Positions 36,338-46,552 are shown, counted from the first letter of the stretch. The stretch is DNA of 64,000 bases from Terriglobia bacterium (GCA_965198225.1 CBDAOY010000005.1:64001-128000), one strand, 5' to 3'. Notes: generated by a model from the sequence alone, not told the origin. A program made the numbers and translations.

Positions 36338-37255
36338 TCAATCTGCCGATCTTCCGGCCGCAATTGCAGTGGCGATGTCCTCGGCTGAGCCTTTAGACAC
36401 GACTCGGTACTCGACAAGTTTCCGGGCCTTCACCCGGCCCCTGACCAGCGTGTCGCAGAAGACCAGGTCCGCCGCCGTGAGGTCCTTGTTCTCCCCTTCG
36501 CCGAGGCAATACGTCTCCAGGGAGTGGCGCTTGCCGATGTGTGGCGCCAGTACACCTCTTGCCGTCTCCAGGAAGTACGGACTGATCGAAACGACCGCAA
36601 CGAGCGCCGGCTTCTTCATGGCCCTCACCATGCTTACCAGTTCGTCGGCTCCGCACGCCTCGAGGGGAAGAATCGCCCGACCGGTCACCATCAGCGGGGC
36701 AAGTTCCGGCACGACTCCGGGCAGGCAGGTGACCAGTGCACCGATGGCCGACCCGCGGTTCGCGGAGAACTCTGCCAGAAGGCACGTTTCGACTGCAAAC
36801 GGCGCGGATTCCGTCAGCTCCGCCCTGAGCAACTTCCCCATTTCGACCGTCTTACTGACCACCAGGACATGGTCCGGGGGCTCGACGAGCAGGCGGTAGC
36901 GGACCCTGTCCTCCAGTTGCTTCAGGCTGTAACCCTTCTCGCGCGCCGACCGGATTGTCGCGTTGATCAAGTCGTCAAGACCCTCCTCGCGGGGGATAAG
37001 AGGTTCCTCGAGGGACCGGACCTCCAAACGTCTGCCCCGGTGTCGCTTGAGCCAATGTCTGTCCACAAGCTCGCCATAGGCCTGGCTGACCGTGTTCGCA
37101 TGAATGTCGTGACGCCGGGCCAACTCCCGCACGCTCGGTAGCTGGTCTCCCGAACGGAGCCGGCCGGTGGCGATGAGAAAAAGGATTTGATCGGTGATCT
37201 GTTGTCGTATCGAGACGTCGCTGTCCCGGTCGATCGAAATGTCGCCTGGTCGCAT
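36338..37255 (-). CDS. GntR family regulator with large C-terminal domain
   Basis: Start MRPGDI; GDQLPSVRELARRHDIHANTVSQAYGEL. Confidence 0.88.
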   Translation of the reverse strand: MRPGDISIDRDSDVSIRQQITDQILFLIATGRLRSGDQLPSVRELARRHDIHANTVSQAYGELVDRHWLKRHRGRRLEVRSLEEPLIPREEGLDDLINATIRSAREKGYSLKQLEDRVRYRLLVEPPDHVLVVSKTVEMGKLLRAELTESAPFAVETCLLAEFSANRGSAIGALVTCLPGVVPELAPLMVTGRAILPLEACGADELVSMVRAMKKPALVAVVSISPYFLETARGVLAPHIGKRHSLETYCLGEGENKDLTAADLVFCDTLVRGRVKARKLVEYRVVSKGSAEDIATAIAAGRSAD

Positions 37256-37380
37256 ACGGATCCTCAGGTAGGGGAACAACCCGATTCTACCCAGACTGCC
37301 GCTTGTGACACTCGAAAAACCGTCACGTCCGAACCCAGCGCCCGGCTCGCTGACGGCTAGGTTGGTGTCGAGGCGAACCA

Positions 37381-37986
37381 ATGACGATTCTCTTTCAGAC
37401 CATCGCAGCAGTCCTGCTTGTCATGTTCGTGGGTTATGGCATGGACATTCGCAGGAAACTCGGAGCGAGGAACTTCGTGCCGGCCGGCTGGCAGGTGCTG
37501 ATGAAAATCAGTTCCTTCTCACTCATCGGCGCCTTCGTCGGGATCACGCTGACGATTCACGAGGTGAATGCCACCGACTGGCTGGGCTTGGTCGCGATGG
37601 CCAGCGGAACCGCATGCGTCGCCGCTGCGAAGCGAGCCCTGGGACGGGCGCACACGTTCACCGGCGAGTACCTCGAAAAGCCGACGCTCGTGACCCGGGG
37701 CATCTATCGCTTCAGCCGGAACCCTCTTTATCTCGGTGTTTTTCAGTGCGAGATCGGCGCCGCCCTGGTCGTCGTGAGCCGGGCGTCTGTCGTTTGGCCC
37801 GGGACACAAGCGTACTGGCTCGCCGGACTCGCGGCGACACTGCTCTACGCAGTTGCGTTCAACCTGAGCATGGCATTTCGGGAAGCACAGTATCTCGGTC
37901 GGTATTTCGGCGAGGACTACCGCCGGTACTCGAAAGCGGTGCCCTTTCTCATCCCGTCGATTCGATCGCGGAAGGAGGCAGCATGA
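37381..37986 (+). CDS. PEMT/ICMT-family membrane methyltransferase
   Basis: Multiple TMs; LVTRGIYRFSRNPLYLG, REAQYLGRYFGEDYRRYSKAVPFLIP. Confidence 0.85.
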   Translation: MTILFQTIAAVLLVMFVGYGMDIRRKLGARNFVPAGWQVLMKISSFSLIGAFVGITLTIHEVNATDWLGLVAMASGTACVAAAKRALGRAHTFTGEYLEKPTLVTRGIYRFSRNPLYLGVFQCEIGAALVVVSRASVVWPGTQAYWLAGLAATLLYAVAFNLSMAFREAQYLGRYFGEDYRRYSKAVPFLIPSIRSRKEAA

Positions 37987-40196
37987 GTGCCACTTTGACG
38001 ACGCTGGAACGGAGGTCTTTTCGCCTCCAAACCGAAGACGCCCCTGCTGCAGGCACCTGGTACGGCGAGGACCCGGCAACGACCCATCTTCTGAACGCCT
38101 ACACCATCCTGGTGCCAGACGGAGAGCGTTTCATCATTCGTACGTGCAGTCGCTACCTCGACCGGGTCTCCCCGGAGCTGAAAGACGAGTTGGAACGGCT
38201 GTTCTTTCAGGAAGGGTCCCATTCCCGCGAACATGGGCGTCTCGTCCGGAAAATGGAGGACGACGGCCTGGGAATGAACCTGTTCAACCGGCTTGTTCGA
38301 TGGCTGTTGTACGGACTCCTGGAGAGCCTGACGCCGCTCCGCCTGCGGTTGGCAACAGCCGCTGCGATCGAACACCACAACGCTACGATCGCCACGTTCT
38401 TTCTCAATCAGGCCCTGCTCAAAGACATCCGCAGAATCGAACTGCGGCGGCTCTTCCTCTGGCACTTTGCCGAGGAGATCGAGCACAAGGAAACCGTCTT
38501 CAAGCTTCTCGAGAGCGTTTCACGGTCATGGACCCTGAGAGCGCTCGGCCTCTTCGTCAGTTGCGTCACGTTCCTGGCCTATCTGGTTGTGGGAGCGCTA
38601 CTGCTCGGCCTGAAGACGGGCTCCGCGTTCACGGTCGGTTTCTGGAAGCCGGTCCTTCCGTCGCACAAAAGGCGCGGCTTGTTCGCGTTCCTGGGTGTGG
38701 AATCCTGGCGCTACCTCGACCCCCGTTTCCGTCCGTCGGTTAGCGAAGCCCAACCGCTGCTCTCGTCCGCCCTTACTGAGCTGGAACGCCTGGATATCGA
38801 TAGAACCCGGCGCACGGGTTCCACGGAGTCGCGCGATCTGCCAGAGGCATTCCGGAGAAAGATGAAGCGCACACTGGATCGATTCGGCAAGTTGAGGCGC
38901 ACAGCAGACTTTTTCTTCAGCCCTGTCGAAGGATATGAGGGAACACGGGTGCGGAGCCGGGGAGCGAGAAAACTCAACTTCTGCACGTACTCCTACCTTG
39001 GACTGCTGCATCACGAGCGTGTCGACGCCGCGGCCATGGGGGCCCTGGAACGGTACGGCACCGGAACGCACGGAGTTCGGCTTCTGGGAGGGAACCTGCA
39101 AATTCATGAGCAACTGGAGTCGAAGCTCGCGAACTTTCTCGGTAGAGAGGCCGCAATCACATTCAGCTCTGGATTCACCACCAACCTGGCCGTGATCGGC
39201 ACTCTCGTCGGAAAGGGCGACTATGTGCTTTCCGACGTACACAATCACGCCAGCATCGTGGACGGCTGCAGGTCGAGCCGATCCGAGACGGTAACGTTCC
39301 GGCACAATGACGTCGGGGACCTCGACCGCAAGCTCGGGAGTCTGCCGAGGGCTGCACGGAAGCTGATCGTCGTCGACGCGGTCTTCAGCATGGACGGTGA
39401 CATCGCGCCACTGGCCGAGCTGCTTGAAATCCGGGACCGGCACGCGAACACGATTCTCATGGTGGACGAGGCTCACAGCCTGGGTGTGCTGGGCCGCGGG
39501 GGAAGAGGGATCGAGGAGCACTTCGATTGCAAGGGGCAGGTCGATGTCCTGATGGGGACCCTCAGCAAGGCGATCCCGTGTCAGGGCGGCTATGTCGTGG
39601 GCTCCAGGGAGCTCGTCACTTTCTTCCGCTACAACGCCCGTGGATTCATCTTCAGCGCGGCATTATCTCCGGTCACGGCGGCGGCGGCGCTGGCCGCGCT
39701 GGAGGTCCTCGAAGACGAAGGCGAAGAGCGCTGCGGTCGACTGATGACGAACGCGCGCTACTTCACCCGCCGACTGGTGGAGGCAGGCTTCGACATCGGG
39801 AACACCCAGACCGCGATCGTCCCGATCCTGCTCGGAGGCGAGTCCCTGGCGTTTGAAATGGCCCGGCTCTCGAATGAGGAGGCCCTGTACGTTCTGCCCG
39901 TGACCTACCCGGCCGTTCCGCACGGGGAGGCACGTCTGCGGACGAGCGTCACGAGCGAACACTGCCAGGAAGATCTGGACCGCGCAGTGCGGACGTTGTC
40001 TCGACGTTTGCCGAGAGGATCCAATTTTATTGGACGAAGAAAGAATGTGGACGCACCCGGGGGCTATCGCAACGGCTGGCTGAGTTGCGGAACCCGTCGA
40101 GTGCGGGTCGGAGCCGGGTCTTGCCGTGTGCCAAGCGGAGCGCGGGTAGCTGCCCGAGAGGCTATCAATGAAGGCATGGCTAAACGAACGGCTTAG
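37983..40196 (+). CDS. Fusion of a 'metal-dependent hydrolase' (ferritin-like ExxH) domain and a PLP alpha-oxoamine synthase (SPT/BioF/KBL-like)
   Basis: ATGA overlap start MSATLT. N-domain PDGERFII, QEGSHSREH, AIEHH, WHFAEEIEHK; C-domain YSYLGL, GTGTHGVRLLGG, NHASIVDG, VFSMDGD, DEAHSLG, GTLSKA. Confidence 0.88.
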   Translation: MSATLTTLERRSFRLQTEDAPAAGTWYGEDPATTHLLNAYTILVPDGERFIIRTCSRYLDRVSPELKDELERLFFQEGSHSREHGRLVRKMEDDGLGMNLFNRLVRWLLYGLLESLTPLRLRLATAAAIEHHNATIATFFLNQALLKDIRRIELRRLFLWHFAEEIEHKETVFKLLESVSRSWTLRALGLFVSCVTFLAYLVVGALLLGLKTGSAFTVGFWKPVLPSHKRRGLFAFLGVESWRYLDPRFRPSVSEAQPLLSSALTELERLDIDRTRRTGSTESRDLPEAFRRKMKRTLDRFGKLRRTADFFFSPVEGYEGTRVRSRGARKLNFCTYSYLGLLHHERVDAAAMGALERYGTGTHGVRLLGGNLQIHEQLESKLANFLGREAAITFSSGFTTNLAVIGTLVGKGDYVLSDVHNHASIVDGCRSSRSETVTFRHNDVGDLDRKLGSLPRAARKLIVVDAVFSMDGDIAPLAELLEIRDRHANTILMVDEAHSLGVLGRGGRGIEEHFDCKGQVDVLMGTLSKAIPCQGGYVVGSRELVTFFRYNARGFIFSAALSPVTAAAALAALEVLEDEGEERCGRLMTNARYFTRRLVEAGFDIGNTQTAIVPILLGGESLAFEMARLSNEEALYVLPVTYPAVPHGEARLRTSVTSEHCQEDLDRAVRTLSRRLPRGSNFIGRRKNVDAPGGYRNGWLSCGTRRVRVGAGSCRVPSGARVAAREAINEGMAKRTA

Positions 40197-40624
40197 CGCT
40201 ACCACGTCTGGATCAGGATCGCGTCCATGTCATCCTCTAGCCTGGTATCGTCGGCGGACGCGGGCCGGTAAGGGCATTACTGCCGGAAGGTCATCGAAAA
40301 GATACTTAGAATGAAGCTGGCAAGAATCATGGCGACGTTTGCCAGGATTGGTGTGCTGGCCCTCGTCGGAGTGTGGTTCACCGTCACGCAACCTGTCGCC
40401 GGCTCCTCAACCATCGGTGAAATTCCCGCTGTCAACGCTGAACGTCTACAGACATGGAAATGATCGGCTATTTTAGCGATGACGAAGGTAGCCAAGGGTA
40501 TCCGTTGGGCCTGCTGCGTCTTTTCTATATGGGTGAAAAACCGAGCGTGTCGGGGGTGTTCAGCTGGCACCAGTGGCCTGAAGGGTCGGGATCGCTGTCC
40601 GGCGCGAGACCGACCCAACCAACG

Positions 40625-41620
40625 TCACTCCTGCGCCGGAACCGACTTCACGCTCAGCAGATACGACAGATCCAGATTCTGTAAACAACGGTGGATCGCC
40701 TTCGGGTGCAGTCCCAGAAGCCGAGCGGCTTCCTTGTAATCCCCGTTGCTGCGGGAAAAGGCCGCTTCGAAGAGCCGGCGTTTGGTTTCGTAGATCGCGT
40801 CGTGATACTTCAGCGGTTCCGCCCTGGTGGTTTCCGGGATGTCGTCGGGCAGATCTTCCGCAAGAATGTGGTCGGCCGAGCCGAGGACGACGGCGTATTC
40901 GATCGCGTTCCGAAGCTCCCGCACGTTGCCCGGCCAGTCATAGTTGCCGAGGATCGCCTGAGCTTCGGGAGAAATGCCGCGGACAACGCGTCCCGCTTCC
41001 CTCGCGCACTTGAACACAAAGTGCCGGGCCAGAGCTGGAATGTCGTCACGCCGCTCGGCGAGGGTCGGTGTCCGCACGGAAAGAACCTTCAGGCGGTAGT
41101 AGAGATCCTGCCGGAACCGGCCGGCCGCGACCGCGGATTCGAGGTTGCGGTTCGTCGCTGCGATCAAGCGGATGTCGACCGGGATCGGGCTTCCGCCGCC
41201 GATCCTGTCGATTTCACGCTCCTCGAGCGCACGCAGCAGCTTGGCCTGGATGGCCGATCCCAGCTCTCCGACCTCGTCCAGGAACAACGTGCCGCCGCTG
41301 GCCAGCTCGAACTTTCCCTTCTGACGGGCGACGGCTCCGGTGAACGCGCCCTTTTCGTGACCGAAGAGCTCGCTTTCCAGGAGAGCTTCCGACAGCGCGG
41401 CGCAGTTGACGGCAACGAAAGGGCCGCCGGGGCGCTGGCTGTTCCGGTGCAGCGCGCGGGCGACGCGCTCTTTTCCGGTGCCGCTTGCGCCCTGGATCAG
41501 GACCGTGGCGGGAGTCGGCGCCGCCTTGCGGATGAACCGGAGCAGCTCGAGCATCGGGGCGCTTTCGCCCACAAGACCGTTGCGAGCGTCGAGTTCGGGA
41601 TTCGTTCGGGCCGTCATCAT
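40625..41620 (-). CDS. Sigma-54-dependent activator (AAA+ plus HTH) with no N-terminal sensor domain
   Basis: [48 protein letters not shown]. Confidence 0.92.
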
Positions 41621-41673
41621 CTATATACGCGCTTTACGCGATCTGGCCGCGTCGGTCTTCATACCGCCCCTCC

Positions 41674-41857
41674 TCAACCGAGGAGCGGCTCTCTTTTTCG
41701 GATGAACCAGAGGAGGGACAGGGTCACGAGCGCGGTGAAGTGGATCGCCGCCTTTAGACCGTCCACGGTCACGGGACGACCGGAAAGTCCGATCCAGAGC
41801 GAGGCTCCTAACGGCAGCGCCAACGCCGTGAAGAACAGGGTCTTGGCTACGCCATCC
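41674..41857 (-). pseudogene. C-terminal fragment of a membrane protein cut at the IS21 junction
   Basis: Hydrophobic KTLFFTALALPLGASLWIGL..FTALVTLSLLWFIRKRE; 5' part replaced by istA. Confidence 0.5.
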
Positions 41858-42775
41858 GGCACTCCCCGCCTCATCGTGCTGGATAACCTGCGCGAAGGCG
41901 TGATCGTCCCGGACCATTACGACCCCACCCTGAATCCGTTGTTTCGAGATGTCCTGACCCATTACGGCGTGGTGGCCATGCCCTGCCGGGTGCGCGATCC
42001 AGACCGCAAAGGCAAAGTCGAATCCGGTGTCGGGCACGCCCAGAAGACCCCATTGAAGGGACAGCGCTTCGAGAGCCTCGACCAGGCCCAGGGGTATCTG
42101 GATCGCTGGGAAGTCCGATGGGCCGACACCCGCATCCACGGCACGACCAAGCGGCAGGTGGCGGCCATGTTCGCCGAAGAGAAACCATCTCTTAAGCCGC
42201 TGCCGATCGAACCGTTTCGCTATTACCAATTCGGTGAACGTGTCGTCCATCTCGACGGTTGCGTCGAAGTCGAAGCCGCCTATTACAGTGTACCGCCGGG
42301 CTGGATCGGACGGGGTGTCAAGGTCCAGTGGGACACGCTTCACGTCCGGATCCTGGACCCAAACACCTATCCACTCCTCCGCGAGCATGTCCGCCAGAAG
42401 CGGGGTGGATACCGTGTCCGTGCTGAAGACAACCCGAAGAAAACCCCGTTAACGACGGTGCAACTGCTGGCCCGAGCCCGCCGCGCTGGCACCCACATCG
42501 GCACACTCTGTGACGCCATTCACCGCCGACAAGGGGAAGCTGCGGTCCGCCGCATCCTGGGTGTGCTCTCCCTGGCCAAGAAGTACGGTGTCTCCGCCGT
42601 GGAGGATGCTTCGGCTGCGGCACTGGAACTCCACGTCTACGAGTATCGTTTCGTCCGCCGCTATCTGGAGCGGCGACCTCCACTCGCCCTGCGTCAGGTC
42701 GATCCTCTCATTCGCGAACTGACTCAGTATCGCGATCTCATCAACCTCAAAATCCAGGAGCAGGAACACTCATGA
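41858..42775 (+). pseudogene. istA: IS21 transposase IstA, 5'-truncated
   Basis: Begins mid-catalytic domain GTPRLIVLDNLREGV; DPDRKGKVESGV; RIHGTT. Confidence 0.88.
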
Positions 42776-43527
42776 ATCTGATCGAACTCCAGCGGGCTCT
42801 CCGACAACTCCGGCTCGGCGGCATTGCCGAGGTGTTGGAAACACGCCTCCACCAGGCCCAGACCGAAGCCATGGCGCCGATCGACTTGGTCTCTCGTCTG
42901 GTCTCGGATGAACTGGACCGTCGCAGCATCCGGTTGTTGGAACGGCGTCGGAAACAGGCCCGGTTCCGCGATCCCCAGAAGACGCTCGACTCCTTCGACT
43001 TTACTTTCAACAAGAAGATGAATCGTAGTCTGGTCTTCGACCTGGCGACGGGCGCCTTCATCTCCAGGCACGACGATGCCTTGTTTCTCGGTCCTCCTGG
43101 CACCGGCAAGAGTCATCTGGCTCAGGCCATCGGCTTGGCTGCCATTGAGCAGGGCTATCGGGTCGTCTACCGTGAAACTCATGCGCTTCTCGACGACATC
43201 GCCGAAGCCACCATTGACGGTACCCGAAAGGAGTGCATGGAAGCTTTGGCGACGGTCCCGCTGCTGATCATCGACGATCTGGGGATGCGGAAGCTTCCTC
43301 CCACTTCAGCAGAGGAACTCCTCGAGATCGTGATGCGACGCTATGAACGGACCAGTACGTTACTGACATCGAATCGACCCGTCCAAGACTGGGGAAAACT
43401 ACTGGGTGATAGCGCCGCCGTCACAGCCATGCTGGACCGGCTGCTCCATCACGGCCACATCCTCAAATGCGGCCCTCGGAGTTGGAGGACTAAAACGGGC
43501 TTGCCGAGTCCAGTCCCAAAGAGGTAG
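42772..43527 (+). CDS. istB: IS21 helper ATPase IstB
   Basis: LDSFDFTF, GPPGTGKSHLA, LIIDDLG, TSNRP, AMLDRLLHH. Confidence 0.95.
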   Translation: MNLIELQRALRQLRLGGIAEVLETRLHQAQTEAMAPIDLVSRLVSDELDRRSIRLLERRRKQARFRDPQKTLDSFDFTFNKKMNRSLVFDLATGAFISRHDDALFLGPPGTGKSHLAQAIGLAAIEQGYRVVYRETHALLDDIAEATIDGTRKECMEALATVPLLIIDDLGMRKLPPTSAEELLEIVMRRYERTSTLLTSNRPVQDWGKLLGDSAAVTAMLDRLLHHGHILKCGPRSWRTKTGLPSPVPKR

Positions 43528-43606: not shown

Positions 43607-43710
43607 TTGCCGCTGCTGTTTGCACCCGTAAACACCGTCAATGGAGCGAACTCAAGCTCCGTCTCTTTCTGAATTGACTTGAAGTTGAACACTTTCCATT
43701 TGATGATCAT
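43607..43710 (-). pseudogene. 5' stub of an AAA ATPase gene interrupted by IS21 within Walker A
   Basis: ATGA-coupled to the methylase; MIIKWKVFNFKSIQKETELEFAPLTVFTGANSSG, then the IS end. Confidence 0.8.
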
Positions 43711-46552
43711 TGGTCGCTCCCCGCCCTGGTTACCGCTTGGTCGTACCACATGAGGAGCTTGGGATCTTCCCGGAGAATCTTCTCTGGGATGCGCTGAGCC
43801 ACGGCGATGATCGTGCGGTAGTCGCGATCCTGCCAGCATCGTTTGAAGCCCGCGCGGACCGCCTCCAGGCGGATGACCTTCATCTTCTTGCCCTCGGGAA
43901 TCGGTGCTGAGTTCGGCTCCAGCCCCGGGATGAAAACTTCCTGTGATTCCGGCTTCGCGCGTTTGTATTCGGCGGGCAAATACTCCGAGAACTCGCGCAT
44001 GAGGGCCAGCTCGCGCAGCTTTTCCAGGTCACTGGCCTTGTTCGGATCGGGCACGTACCAGCGGTCCTTGCCCTTGGCCTTGAGCGACGGATCGTCCTTG
44101 GCTAGGTTGCGGAGTTCCTTGAAGTTCGAGGAGAGGTAGCTGTGAATCTGGCTGGGCACCTCCCCCTTGCCGTCGTAGCGCAGGAAATTCTGCTCGAGCA
44201 GTTCATCAAGCTCAAGCATTATTTCGTTCTTTTGCCAGCCACCAAGTGTCTGCATGAATTGGGGCTTCAGGTCACCTGGCGTTTGCGGTTTCTTCGTGAG
44301 TTGTTGTTTGAGCCACTGGATAGCCGACGCCTCGTCGGAGACGAAGAGGGACAGTTGAAGAATTTCTCTTACAGTAATCCGTTTCTTGTCGTACTCGGCA
44401 GCCTGCTCGGGCAGGAAATACATACCGTCACGTGCCGGAAAGCGTTGTTCCAGGCCCGCGTAAAACTCAGCGGCGGACAAGGGGACTGTCACACCGCGCT
44501 GGACATGAAAAGCAACCATTCGGTCGAAAAGCAAAAAGTTCTGACGTTCGGCAATGACCTCTGCTTGATTGTTCTTCACCACAAATAGGGGGAGTTGTTT
44601 CAGGTGGGTCCTAACGAAATCCCAAACTCCATCTTCAACCCCGGCTGTTAGCTTGAACCGATCTTCAAGTCCGCCATTGGGCTTGTATGCAGAGATCACC
44701 AGATCTTGATCAACTGCCCCAGCCCTGTTGACGGCATTGAATGAGCGCTGTTGTTTGTCAAGAACACGAACATCTGCCACAACCAAACCGGATGCTTCGA
44801 TAGATTGCTGGATGGCACTCCAGACTGCATTCTGGCTGTTGTGGAACTCAATGGTTATCCAGTGCCCCGGCTTGAGCACCCGGTCATATCCCTTAAATGC
44901 TGAAGCCATCATGTGGGAATAGAATGGAAGATCCTTTTTGTGAACGTAATTGAGAACGCAATCATCTTCCGTGAGGCTTCTGACTCGTACCCACGCTTCA
45001 ACAAAGGAATTCAATTCTGAGTATTGAAGGGATTCTCCAAATGGTGGATCTGTGAAGATATAGTCAATTGAATTGCTGGGGATGTTTTTCAGATCGGCAA
45101 TGCTCTGCGTTGAGATAACCGTTGTTCTGCTCACGGCGCTTGTTAGCTTGCAGATCTTTCGGATTTTCCGCCGCAGGACATCGAATACGTTCCGCTCCAA
45201 GTGAAGAGACGGTGTAAACAGTGTCCCTGACACTCCTCCCCCACCGCCGAAATACCCCTGCTTCCTGGATACGTAGTTATTGATTGCGCTTAGGCAGAAG
45301 CGAAAGAGTGATGTATGCCGCAATGATGACAGCTCAAGTTGCCACAATTCACCCAAGGCAAACAAAGCCCTTGGGGTATACATGTGACAAATATGGGAGA
45401 TGCCAGTGCCATTTATAAGTTTGTTGGTTTGACGCCCGGCGAAGAACTTGTCCGTAGGAACCGACGGCCACTGACGATTGTCGAATCGCTTGTCAAGAGC
45501 CCTCCTGTCTGCCTCCGAAATCTTGAGCTTTGCGCGCTTTGAACCAGACTTAATGGTCTGCTCTAACAGCACGAATTCCGGGACACGAACAACTTCTTTA
45601 AGAACAGGATCATATCTTGTGACAAATGCTCGCTCGAGTTTAGCGGCACCTGTTGTTCGTGAAGCGCTTTTCCCGACGATTGAACCACAATCAGGACATG
45701 GAAACGATTTCTGCATTTTTCCATTCTTCAGTGCTGCTTCCCAGAAAACGAGTTCGTTGCTACAGTTTGGACAAAGGAAAACGTCAGACCAGATGGCACT
45801 CAACACTGCACCGGAGCTACTTTCATATAGCCACGACAGAGATCTCTCAATTTCATCAACGACTCGAAGAGCCTCTCTTTCGAAGTCTTCGAGGCCAAAC
45901 AAGTCAACATAGTTTCGAGCAATGAAAGTAGCAATTGGGGACAGATCCGACAGAATCGAATGGCGTTCGCCAACCATAGAAATAGCACTATTCCGCTCAT
46001 CCAGAACTGTTCCATCATCCTTCACCCGGTAACCGAGAGCCTCGATTTCTTTTGCATCTCCACACAATTGAGCAGCTACACCTGTCATTCCCGTCCCGCA
46101 GAAACCATCAAGGACCAGTCACCTGGTTGGGTATAGTGGAGGATGTACCGCATCAGGGCCTTATGCGGGACTTTGGTATGGTATGAGTGCGCGTTGTAAA
46201 TCGGGTCGTTTTTACCTTCGCTGACATCTGCCGCAAAAGTCTCGCGGCTGTAAGACCTACCTGAATCATACGGTCTGCCATAATGCTTGATAAAATCCTC
46301 AATGAACGGATTCGGGCAGGCGGTGTATAACGGCGGATCAGACAAATCCAGAATGTCCTCGTCCCTGCCGATCGGGAACCCCTCGATCTTGCGGAACTCC
46401 GGGTCCTTGAGCTTTTCGCGTAGCGTTCCCAAGAAATACTCCCGGCGCTCCTCGTCGTTCTCGAAAGTCATGCCGAGGCATTCCACTGGTCCCTGCGGCT
46501 TGGCGTCAGACTCCAGGTCGAAAAGATGTTGTTCGTGGTAGTCTTTTACCAT
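43707..46552 (-). pseudogene. pglXI: BREX type 3 DNA methyltransferase PglXI, split by a 1-nt frameshift at about 46117
   Basis: KNDPIYNAHSYHTKVPH..YTQPGD, shift, (L)VLDGFCGTGMTG; DYIFTDPPF; CPNC and CPDC; follows brxF-brxC. Confidence 0.85.

Follow-up and report, generated by a model that had tools for sequence, protein, structure and literature searches.

How a domain named as a metal-dependent hydrolase, an alpha-oxoamine synthase (AOS) and a membrane methyltransferase come to stand together in one bacterial locus, and what they might make, is the question raised by positions 36338 to 40196 of a stretch of DNA from a Terriglobia bacterium (GCA_965198225.1 CBDAOY010000005.1:64001-128000). 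The whole stretch of 64,000 nucleotides is called the window here, and positions are counted from its first letter. The region holds three genes: a GntR-family regulator (36338..37381, minus strand), a 201-amino acid methyltransferase of the PEMT/ICMT superfamily (P0002; 37381..37986, plus strand) and a 737-amino acid fusion protein (P0001; 37983..40196, plus strand) that consists of a PF10118 domain, a linker, an AOS domain and a tail carrying an insert. A first-pass annotation made from the sequence alone had described a single frame joining the two domains, its ATGA coupling to the methyltransferase and its divergence from a GntR gene, and all three descriptions stand: the 737-residue frame at 37983-40196 is open and both Pfam domains were found in it, the fusion ATG at 37983 overlaps the methyltransferase TGA (37984-37986) with a GGAGG upstream, and the minus-strand protein at 36338-37381 matches PF00392 (47.7 bits, cut-off 27). 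Our favoured reading, to which we assign a probability of roughly 0.45, is that of a self-contained biosynthetic module of three activities, regulated by the divergent GntR protein, with an oxidised, methylated long-chain amino-ketone or sphingoid-base-like lipid as its product.

The PF10118-AOS frame is a genuine conserved fusion. In a search of a database of 5.8 billion proteins, PF10118 and PF00155 were found in the same protein in 48 of the best 120 clusters that were considered, mostly with lengths of 680-700 amino acids; the fused forms are 55-65% identical across several phyla and their catalytic residues are invariant. A scan seeded on N-domain motifs yielded 36 metagenome loci, which were classified by tblastn and frame checks: 19 are fused, and in four the two parts lie in different frames, either as clean separate open reading frames (ORFs; L124 and L128) or on short contigs (L121 and L135). 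Another AOS lies upstream of the PF10118 gene in two loci (L113 and L114), six loci are cut by the contig end, three are decayed or truncated remnants (L122, L123 and L127) and two hold a distant N-domain only. The first-pass annotation had left room for the two domains being separate genes; instead, the split forms L124 and L128 share one AOS clade with the fused forms, which is the pattern expected of a functional fusion. The protein search further suggests, without proving it, split neighbours: the contigs of the AOS proteins P0054, P0055 and P0057 have the same lengths as those of the stand-alone PF10118 proteins P0125, P0136 and P0138. The split AOS of L124 has the same sequence as P0057.

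Conservation extends to the link with the methyltransferase. Its gene is adjacent in 30 of the 36 loci, directly upstream in 29 (gap of at most 54 nucleotides) and downstream in one; among the six loci lacking it, two have no room upstream and one has no room downstream. The methyltransferase is also found fused in P0028, P0126, P0137 and P0144: P0028 (882 amino acids) is a triple fusion with the PEMT domain (PF04191) N-terminal to PF10118 and AOS, and an alignment search with the N-domain found two-domain PF04191-PF10118 proteins in three of 72 relatives, together with stand-alone forms. The trio hence recurs together, and fusions exist of PF10118 with AOS, of the methyltransferase with PF10118 and of all three. 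Eleven of the 36 loci also have a divergently oriented GntR homologue. When 49 flanking ORFs from 10 loci were compared with Pfam, no recurring family besides the module itself was found, except for a DUF2817 gene downstream in two close loci; since conserved downstream genes were not found among the loci scanned, the unit of methyltransferase, PF10118 and AOS, with or without GntR, looks self-contained. A scan keyed to AOS motifs returned at least 80 AOS-only loci and is silent on the spread of the fusion in reference genomes: loci L009-L100 (n=92) showed no N-domain or methyltransferase match save the window's own copy. Structure prediction added nothing on how the parts are arranged: a complex of methyltransferase and N-domain scored 0.00 and was used neither for nor against the reading, and the full-length AlphaFold2 (AF2) model from an 11-row alignment was poor (pLDDT 58.5, pTM 0.43; 24-28 in the insert region, as in most of the C-terminal half), hence no domain arrangement was drawn from it.

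The AOS domain (residues 330-671; 38970..39995, plus strand) matches PF00155 over profile positions 3-360 of 361 with E 3.5e-57 and is therefore full length, in keeping with the complete pyridoxal phosphate (PLP)-dependent domain with a GTLSK lysine that had been proposed. This lysine, K529 (codon 39567-39569), aligns with the lysine position of SPT and KBL; together with H422 (NHASIVDG), D495/H498 (VDEAHS) and R651/R653 it falls within motif stretches (HASI.DG, D..H, G.LSK and R.R) shared with solved SPT, ThAOS and KBL, and these residues, whose catalytic roles we presume, are invariant in 11 of 11 fused relatives. Among the solved relatives, Sphingobacterium SPT scored best (309 bits), followed by ThAOS (277) and KBL (264), and the alignments reach the end of the folds of these chains. 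No NCBIfam equivalog cut-off was reached: this holds for SPT (NF047600, 375.2 against 640; NF047599, 326.2 against 500; NF047603, 277.3 against 670), BioF (TIGR00858, 374.6 against 426.45), KBL (NF005394, 370.1 against 460; TIGR01822, 309.1 against 493), ALAS (TIGR01821, 276.6 against 338.55) and the CqsA-type family (NF005526, 190.5 against 428). The same genome also has a KBL (493 bits, cut-off 460) and a BioF-like gene (386 against 426).

In order to place the domain we used a quick maximum-likelihood tree with SH-aLRT support only, built from 56 chosen rows (15 of about 48 fused forms, 13 stand-alone hits and 28 locus ORFs). All 15 fused and seven unfused forms make up one clade of 22 rows (SH-aLRT 98), which leaves out the labelled rows, namely the genome's own KBL, BioF (L081), BioF/Kbl (L090 and others) and a near-SPT row (L083). 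Nesting within BioF or KBL, the other outcome that had been foreseen, is not what we see: the domain has its own clade and reaches no equivalog cut-off. L113 has recruited a different AOS, which sits on a long branch. In the nearest outgroup row (L013, Polyangiales; SH-aLRT 83), the AOS gene has FemAB/GNAT-like, SDR and FA_hydroxylase genes after it, a neighbourhood that by analogy looks like a sphingolipid-type cluster. Because of this outgroup context, and of Sphingobacterium SPT being the best solved match, the acyl substrate may be tilted, weakly, toward long chains. As a separate observation, the nearest AOS domains outside the module (L039-L054, L085 and L088, from Streptomyces, Actinokineospora, Magnetococcales and others) are often C-terminal in proteins of 1000-1900 amino acids, which are probably megasynthases of polyketide synthase type.

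The N-terminal domain (residues 11-252; 38013..38738, plus strand) matches PF10118 over profile positions 3-244 of 247 with E 8.7e-47 and 160.3 bits, against a cut-off of 33.2. Paired ExxH motifs, taken as a sign of a ferritin-like diiron protein, and a hydrophobic helix had been noticed in it. Both motifs (E77-x-x-H80 and E165-x-x-H168) and the helix (residues 184-213) are present, and the candidate metal ligands are E48, E77/H80 (plus H84), E130 (plus H131) and H161/E165/H168. Across 16 PF10118 members, down to 22% identity, the residues E48, Q76, E77, H80, H84 and E130 are invariant, as are W160, H161, E164, E165, E167 and H168; the HExxH motif of zinc hydrolases is absent from the domain. 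The AF2 model of the N-domain (7-row alignment) is all-helical (pLDDT 84.8, pTM 0.86) and places E48 on helix 31-56, E77xxH80 on 64-96, E130 on 119-142 and E165xxH168 on 152-179: the ligands thus lie on four long helices in the order E / ExxH / E / ExxH, which is the di-iron carboxylate pattern. A fold search independent of Foldseek returned CmlI first (Z 13.7, rmsd 4.0, 214 aligned residues), with R2 (13.2), R2lox (12.9), AurF (12.3), sMMO (12.0) and ADO (11.4) following, and re-alignment agreed (AurF 12.3-13.0). The top Foldseek rows were RNR R2, R2lox, ADO, AurF and acyl-ACP (acyl carrier protein) desaturase, and the leading rows of three fold searches were all ferritin-like di-iron or Mn/Fe proteins; a search of the ESM Atlas returned PF10118 clusters only. 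Because of the modelled fold and the family-invariant Glu/His ligands, PF10118 reads as a ferritin-like di-metal family, of di-iron type, which supports the earlier reading of this domain. Neither a characterised PF10118/COG3687 member nor a published description of the module was found in the literature (subscription journals and supplements were not covered). The "predicted hydrolase" name of PF10118 is a prediction only, and the di-metal reading suggests that it is misleading.

The hydrophobic helix (residues 184-213; 38532..38621, plus strand) reaches a Kyte-Doolittle mean of 2.53 over 19 residues and is modelled as helix 183-212; a similar segment is present in P0003, P0008 and P0039. It is likely to be a membrane-docking element, and we favour monotopic docking, because a true membrane crossing would part the metal and PLP domains to opposite sides. 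PF10118 itself is widespread, for example in Acinetobacter, Mycobacterium, Burkholderia, Nostoc and Caulobacter; distant PF10118 genes on annotated plasmids or chromids have a varied context (AraC or TetR regulators; a methyltransferase in Nostoc) that offers no functional clue.

The methyltransferase matches PF04191 (51.8 bits, cut-off 25) and PF04140 (26.6, cut-off 24), has 4-5 hydrophobic segments and is polytopic, and the motifs RNPLY and FG..Y..Y are invariant in nine of nine partner methyltransferases. In the PEMT/ICMT superfamily the methyl acceptor is an N, O, phosphate or S of a lipophilic substrate. The NCBIfam equivalog cut-offs were not reached by our protein in case of isoprenylcysteine O-methyltransferase (NF040696, 40.1 against 160), LmtA (TIGR04571, 24 against 325) or MddA (NF045656, 18.1 against 270). 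In P0193, a distant PF10118 member with 22% identity, the N-terminal ~90 residues resemble the C-terminal part of a PEMT/ICMT-like domain; judging by this resemblance, the pairing of methyltransferase and PF10118 may extend past the AOS-linked branch.

On the favoured reading, the AOS would carry out a decarboxylating condensation between an amino acid and a fatty acyl thioester (acyl-CoA or acyl-ACP), from which a long-chain alpha-amino-ketone like a 3-keto-sphingoid base would result. Such amino-ketones self-condense, and for this reason we envisage a direct hand-over: the attached di-metal domain, held at the membrane by its hydrophobic helix, would take the amino-ketone directly and oxidise it with O2, be it by hydroxylation or desaturation of the chain or by oxygenation of the amine. 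The coupled membrane methyltransferase would then methylate the amine or the new oxygen function, and the end product would be a free, oxidised, methylated amino-lipid, not a ceramide; the "sphingolipid" label for this product is one that we infer. A bolder version, which we consider possible and on balance doubtful, holds that PF10118 proteins could be membrane-docked, ferritin-like di-iron oxygenases acting on lipid amines, which with an obligate PEMT-like partner and an SPT-derived AOS would make an unseen class of free long-chain bases, oxygenated and N- or O-methylated and not acylated to ceramides. At the more general level, comparative genomics makes a strong case for an AOS-based variant of amine-lipid or signal biosynthesis that appears to be uncharacterised.

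Several points weigh against the lipid reading. Foldseek gave no match to the N-domain at E ≤ 0.001 (best E 0.052), PDB sequence and profile searches at E 1 or E 10 returned no solved chain similar to it in sequence, and fold Z values up to 13.7 are in a range that helical bundles reach by arrangement, without kinship, which is why the sequence evidence of invariant ligands matters. A strongly hydrophobic segment was not seen in P0026. The likeness of the AOS to SPT is a near tie, with SPT at 375.2, BioF at 374.6 and KBL at 370.1 bits, all below cut-off; the sequence does not give chain length or the amino-acid substrate, the specificity rules available for active-site residues not being transferable to this enzyme, and the order of oxidation before methylation is a guess. 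The bacterial ceramide route consists of Spt, the acyltransferase bCerS and the reductase CerR, as set out in PMC11087976; a ceramide-route reductase or N-acyltransferase (GNAT) was found neither in the window flanks nor in 10 related loci, the rest of the genome not having been searched. Neighbours that hint at lipids each occur in single loci only: MMPL, LolA-like and DUF1302 genes follow the module in L113 (5796-10925), FtsX/MacB and LolA-like genes flank a distant PF10118 gene in L133 (5155-12617), and a ceramidase-family match close to the cut-off (31.2 against 32.5 bits) lies two genes upstream in L119. The presence of a LolA-like gene and a transporter beside PF10118 genes in two unrelated loci (L113 and L133) suggests export of a lipophilic product.

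The alternatives differ in what they make of the product and of the metal site. The product could be a diffusible signal in place of a membrane lipid, that is, an autoinducer of the CqsA/LqsA kind derived from a medium-chain amino-ketone, or else a pyrazine, tailored by the oxidase and the methyltransferase, with GntR as its receptor or regulator. The match of the AOS domain to the CqsA-type NCBIfam family (E 3.6e-56) is consistent with this, but its score of 190 against a cut-off of 428 lies far under the SPT, BioF and KBL scores. The module is small and patchy (one of 401 genomes of the phylum; PF10118 above cut-off in two of 60 relatives), a divergent regulator is seen in 11 of 36 loci, and a gene of the penicillin/N-acyl homoserine lactone (AHL) acylase family follows the module in L112; against this, GntR is missing from 25 of the 36 loci, no sensor-kinase partner was found in the flanks scanned, and a polytopic methyltransferase, together with an oxidase domain that has a hydrophobic helix, suits a lipid substrate. 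We regard a signal as unlikely. Somewhat less probable to us is an N-oxygenase of the AurF/CmlI type that would convert the amine of the AOS product into a hydroxylamine, oxime or nitro group, followed by O-methylation to an N-oxygenated, methoxylated ketone. In the fold search CmlI ranked highest (Z 13.7, rmsd 4.0, 214 aligned), with AurF at 12.3-13.0; an oxygenase directed at amines would be a fitting partner for the amine-forming enzyme to which it is fused; and the last ligand helix carries H161-x3-E165-x2-H168, invariant in 16 members, which would correspond to the three-His pattern of AurF. Yet R2, R2lox, sMMO and ADO score level with CmlI to within about 1-2 Z units, the N-domain has no sequence-level match to a solved chain by which its residues could be equated with those of AurF, and the known members of the AurF/CmlI type act on arylamines.

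Lower still in our estimation stands a true metal-dependent hydrolase, which might supply the AOS, for example, by freeing or trimming an acyl thioester or an amide, and the module would then have no oxygenase step. The Pfam and COG names and the source annotations ("metal-dependent hydrolase") all say so, and di-metal carboxylate sites can support hydrolysis too; the name, however, is a prediction for which the literature offered no characterised member, and the leading fold matches are all ferritin-like proteins that activate O2 or generate radicals, which makes this explanation improbable. Finally, the gene might be an ordinary BioF/KBL paralogue whose extra domain has no bearing on its role, or it might be decaying, without present function, and carried along by a mobile region. 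It sits between toxin-antitoxin-like genes and IS21, it contains a transposase-derived insert, and decayed remnants of the module exist in G018, L122, L123 and L127. Nevertheless, the genome already possesses a KBL (493 against 460) and a BioF-like gene (386 against 426) while the fused AOS reaches no equivalog cut-off, the frame is open with the insert outside the domains, and fused forms that are 55-65% identical over several phyla keep their catalytic residues invariant; this explanation is very improbable and largely excluded. We thus retain the three-activity lipid module as the preferred reading.

As regards the regulator, the longest ORF of the GntR gene begins at 37381; since the alignment with relatives sets in only at about residue 16-60, M43 (37255) is probably the real start. 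The protein comprises an N-terminal winged helix and a C-terminal domain of ~220 amino acids without a Pfam match. This C-terminal region (residues ~125-347; window 36338-37000, minus strand), which belongs to no Pfam family and is conserved alongside the module in 11 loci out of 36, might bind an effector as a domain of an unclassified type. An operator scan of the intergenic region between the GntR and methyltransferase genes found no inverted repeat, and a promoter and terminator scan found nothing above chance level.

The C-terminal end of the fusion protein required a different explanation from the one first given. Its last ~60 amino acids had been taken for run-on after a 3' truncation, with possible loss of downstream genes. 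Compared with its closest relatives, P0003 and P0004 (692 and 691 amino acids), the protein has 45 extra residues between ...DLDRAVRTLSR and a conserved tail, ARVAAREAINEGMAKRTA: an in-frame insert of 135 nucleotides (RLPRGSNF...CRVPSG; 40003..40137, plus strand) is followed by the native C-terminal tail and stop codon (40138..40196, plus strand). The run-on is refuted by this internal insert with the native tail behind it, and the flanking genes are not conserved among relatives, which speaks against a loss of downstream genes. The tail is conserved in P0003 and P0004, and the alignment of 11 sequences shows conservation at the A720/R721 columns; a solved KBL chain aligns up to TLSR, so that the insert lies beyond the AOS fold. 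Within the 90%-identity cluster, the three remaining full-length proteins have 692 amino acids and lack the insert, and Logan contigs of the runs X2, X3 and X5, from three studies, join 40002 to 40138 directly, with 303 + 263 flanking bases and zero mismatches. In X5 the 31-base core of the insert occurs in transposase context only; the contig of a further run (X7) spans 40142-40400 only and is silent on the insert. Read-through after truncation was accordingly ruled out by the relatives and by the contigs of three runs.

The insert is a patchwork of short blocks shared with a Mutator-family transposase gene (PF00872) that has 11 copies in the same genome: 40018-40137 aligns to the 228 nucleotides of G000:C5:764690-764917 with 119 of 120 bases identical, one mismatch and 13 gaps. 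The insert is either a strain-specific insertion or an assembly artefact. We lean slightly toward an artefact, because transposition would hardly yield a compressed transposase copy in which small deletions are numerous and substitutions nearly absent. Template switching, or an artefact of assembly or polishing, may explain the compressed-copy pattern. Whichever is correct, the annotated 45-residue "tail" should be read with caution: it is transposase-gene DNA that is absent from the identical DNA of other data sets. At the source copy (L005, G000:C5:763268-766302) the Mutator-type transposase ORF has only 203 amino acids and abuts an IS21 IstB on the other strand, which at 209 bits scores equal to the IstB of the window; this suggests nested or composite insertion sequence (IS) elements, repeated about 11 times.

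In the window, the module is flanked by IS21 and, at its opposite side, by Fic, nucleotidyltransferase and DUF433/DUF5615 genes. The downstream context outside the module (40625..43527) comprises, by Pfam, a sigma-54 activator ORF starting right with its AAA+ domain (40625-41620, minus strand), a C-terminal piece of an IS21-type Mu-transposase (41750-42775) and an IS21-type IstB (42772-43527). The sigma-54 activator has no N-terminal sensor or receiver domain and lies beside the IS21 genes; it was probably cut short by IS21 insertion. Further on, a 793-amino acid ORF (43707-46088, minus strand) has no Pfam match and a DPPFG-type motif, which is typical of N6/N4 DNA methyltransferases; the ORF may thus belong to a locus for restriction or defence. 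Among relatives of the host the module is rare: the fused gene was not found in 59 of them, which have AOS paralogues only, PF10118 exceeds its cut-off in two of 60 genomes (the host and G018, the latter with mere fragments of GntR, methyltransferase and N-domain), and among 401 sampled genomes of the phylum the N-domain profile matched the host alone. By source names, the carriers include Bryobacterales, Rhodospirillales and Cupriavidus pampae (fused form), while the unfused AOS clade member P0058 is from Serratia rubidaea. This rarity, the scattered carriers and the mobile-element flanks fit horizontal acquisition of the region, which is rich in insertions. In L104 (2867-6304) and L131 (5943-9891), on different sub-branches with 62% and 47% N-domain identity, respectively, Pnkp/Hen1 RNA-repair genes are found close to the module; this proximity may be coincidence or a shared island.

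The fused and split forms tie three protein families into one pathway, and for two of these, PF10118 and this PEMT/ICMT-like branch, no substrate is known in bacteria. The AOS serves as an anchor that narrows the chemistry to an amine built from an acyl thioester, and the widespread PF10118 domain thereby gains a concrete, testable function. The possible product, an amino-lipid or a signal, would lie outside the Spt-bCerS-CerR ceramide route as known. Genetics and lipidomics are feasible, since two cultured species have related genes: Cupriavidus pampae the fused form and Serratia rubidaea an unfused AOS that falls in this clade.

Comparison with known systems shows what is shared and what sets the module apart. 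CmlI/AurF, R2lox, ADO and acyl-ACP desaturase have in common with the N-domain a helical-bundle fold with E / ExxH / E / ExxH on four helices, and R2lox, ADO and the desaturases handle fatty-chain ligands; in contrast to the solved di-iron or Mn/Fe oxygenases, PF10118 is without detectable sequence similarity to them and has the additional invariant H84, H131 and H161, and unlike the ferritin-like oxygenases it has a hydrophobic helix after the bundle and a covalently attached PLP enzyme. PEMT, Ste14/ICMT, LmtA and MddA resemble the methyltransferase in the PF04191/PF04140 match, in polytopy and in weak NCBIfam ICMT/LmtA/MddA matches, whereas our protein lies far under every equivalog cut-off and is bound to PF10118 by adjacency and fusion. 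CqsA and LqsA are likewise AOS-family enzymes that make a small amino-ketone-derived molecule from acyl-CoA; the module AOS reaches only 190 bits against the cut-off of 428 and has no cognate sensor adjacent, and CqsA systems are not known to have oxidase or methyltransferase partners. KBL, BioF and Thermus BioF/KBL agree with the module AOS in their PLP fold and in their catalytic motifs, and solved chains score 264-277 bits against it, while it stays below their cut-offs and branches apart from the labelled rows in a genome that has its own KBL and BioF-like gene. Measured against the Spt-bCerS-CerR route, as described in PMC11087976, no acyltransferase or reductase stands beside the module in the flanks scanned, and it is the L013 outgroup cluster that resembles this logic of Spt, acyltransferase and reductase. 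The closest comparison is with SPT of Sphingobacterium multivorum (PDB 3a2b/8guh), the best-scoring solved relative, which has the soluble-type AOS fold in common with our domain and likely also its chemistry, from amino acid and fatty acyl thioester to a keto long-chain base. The fused family nevertheless has an invariant NFCTYSYLGL where the aligned SPT has GSNSYLGL, and its AOS is joined to a di-metal domain, with a PEMT-like methyltransferase in place of the acyltransferase and reductase partners.

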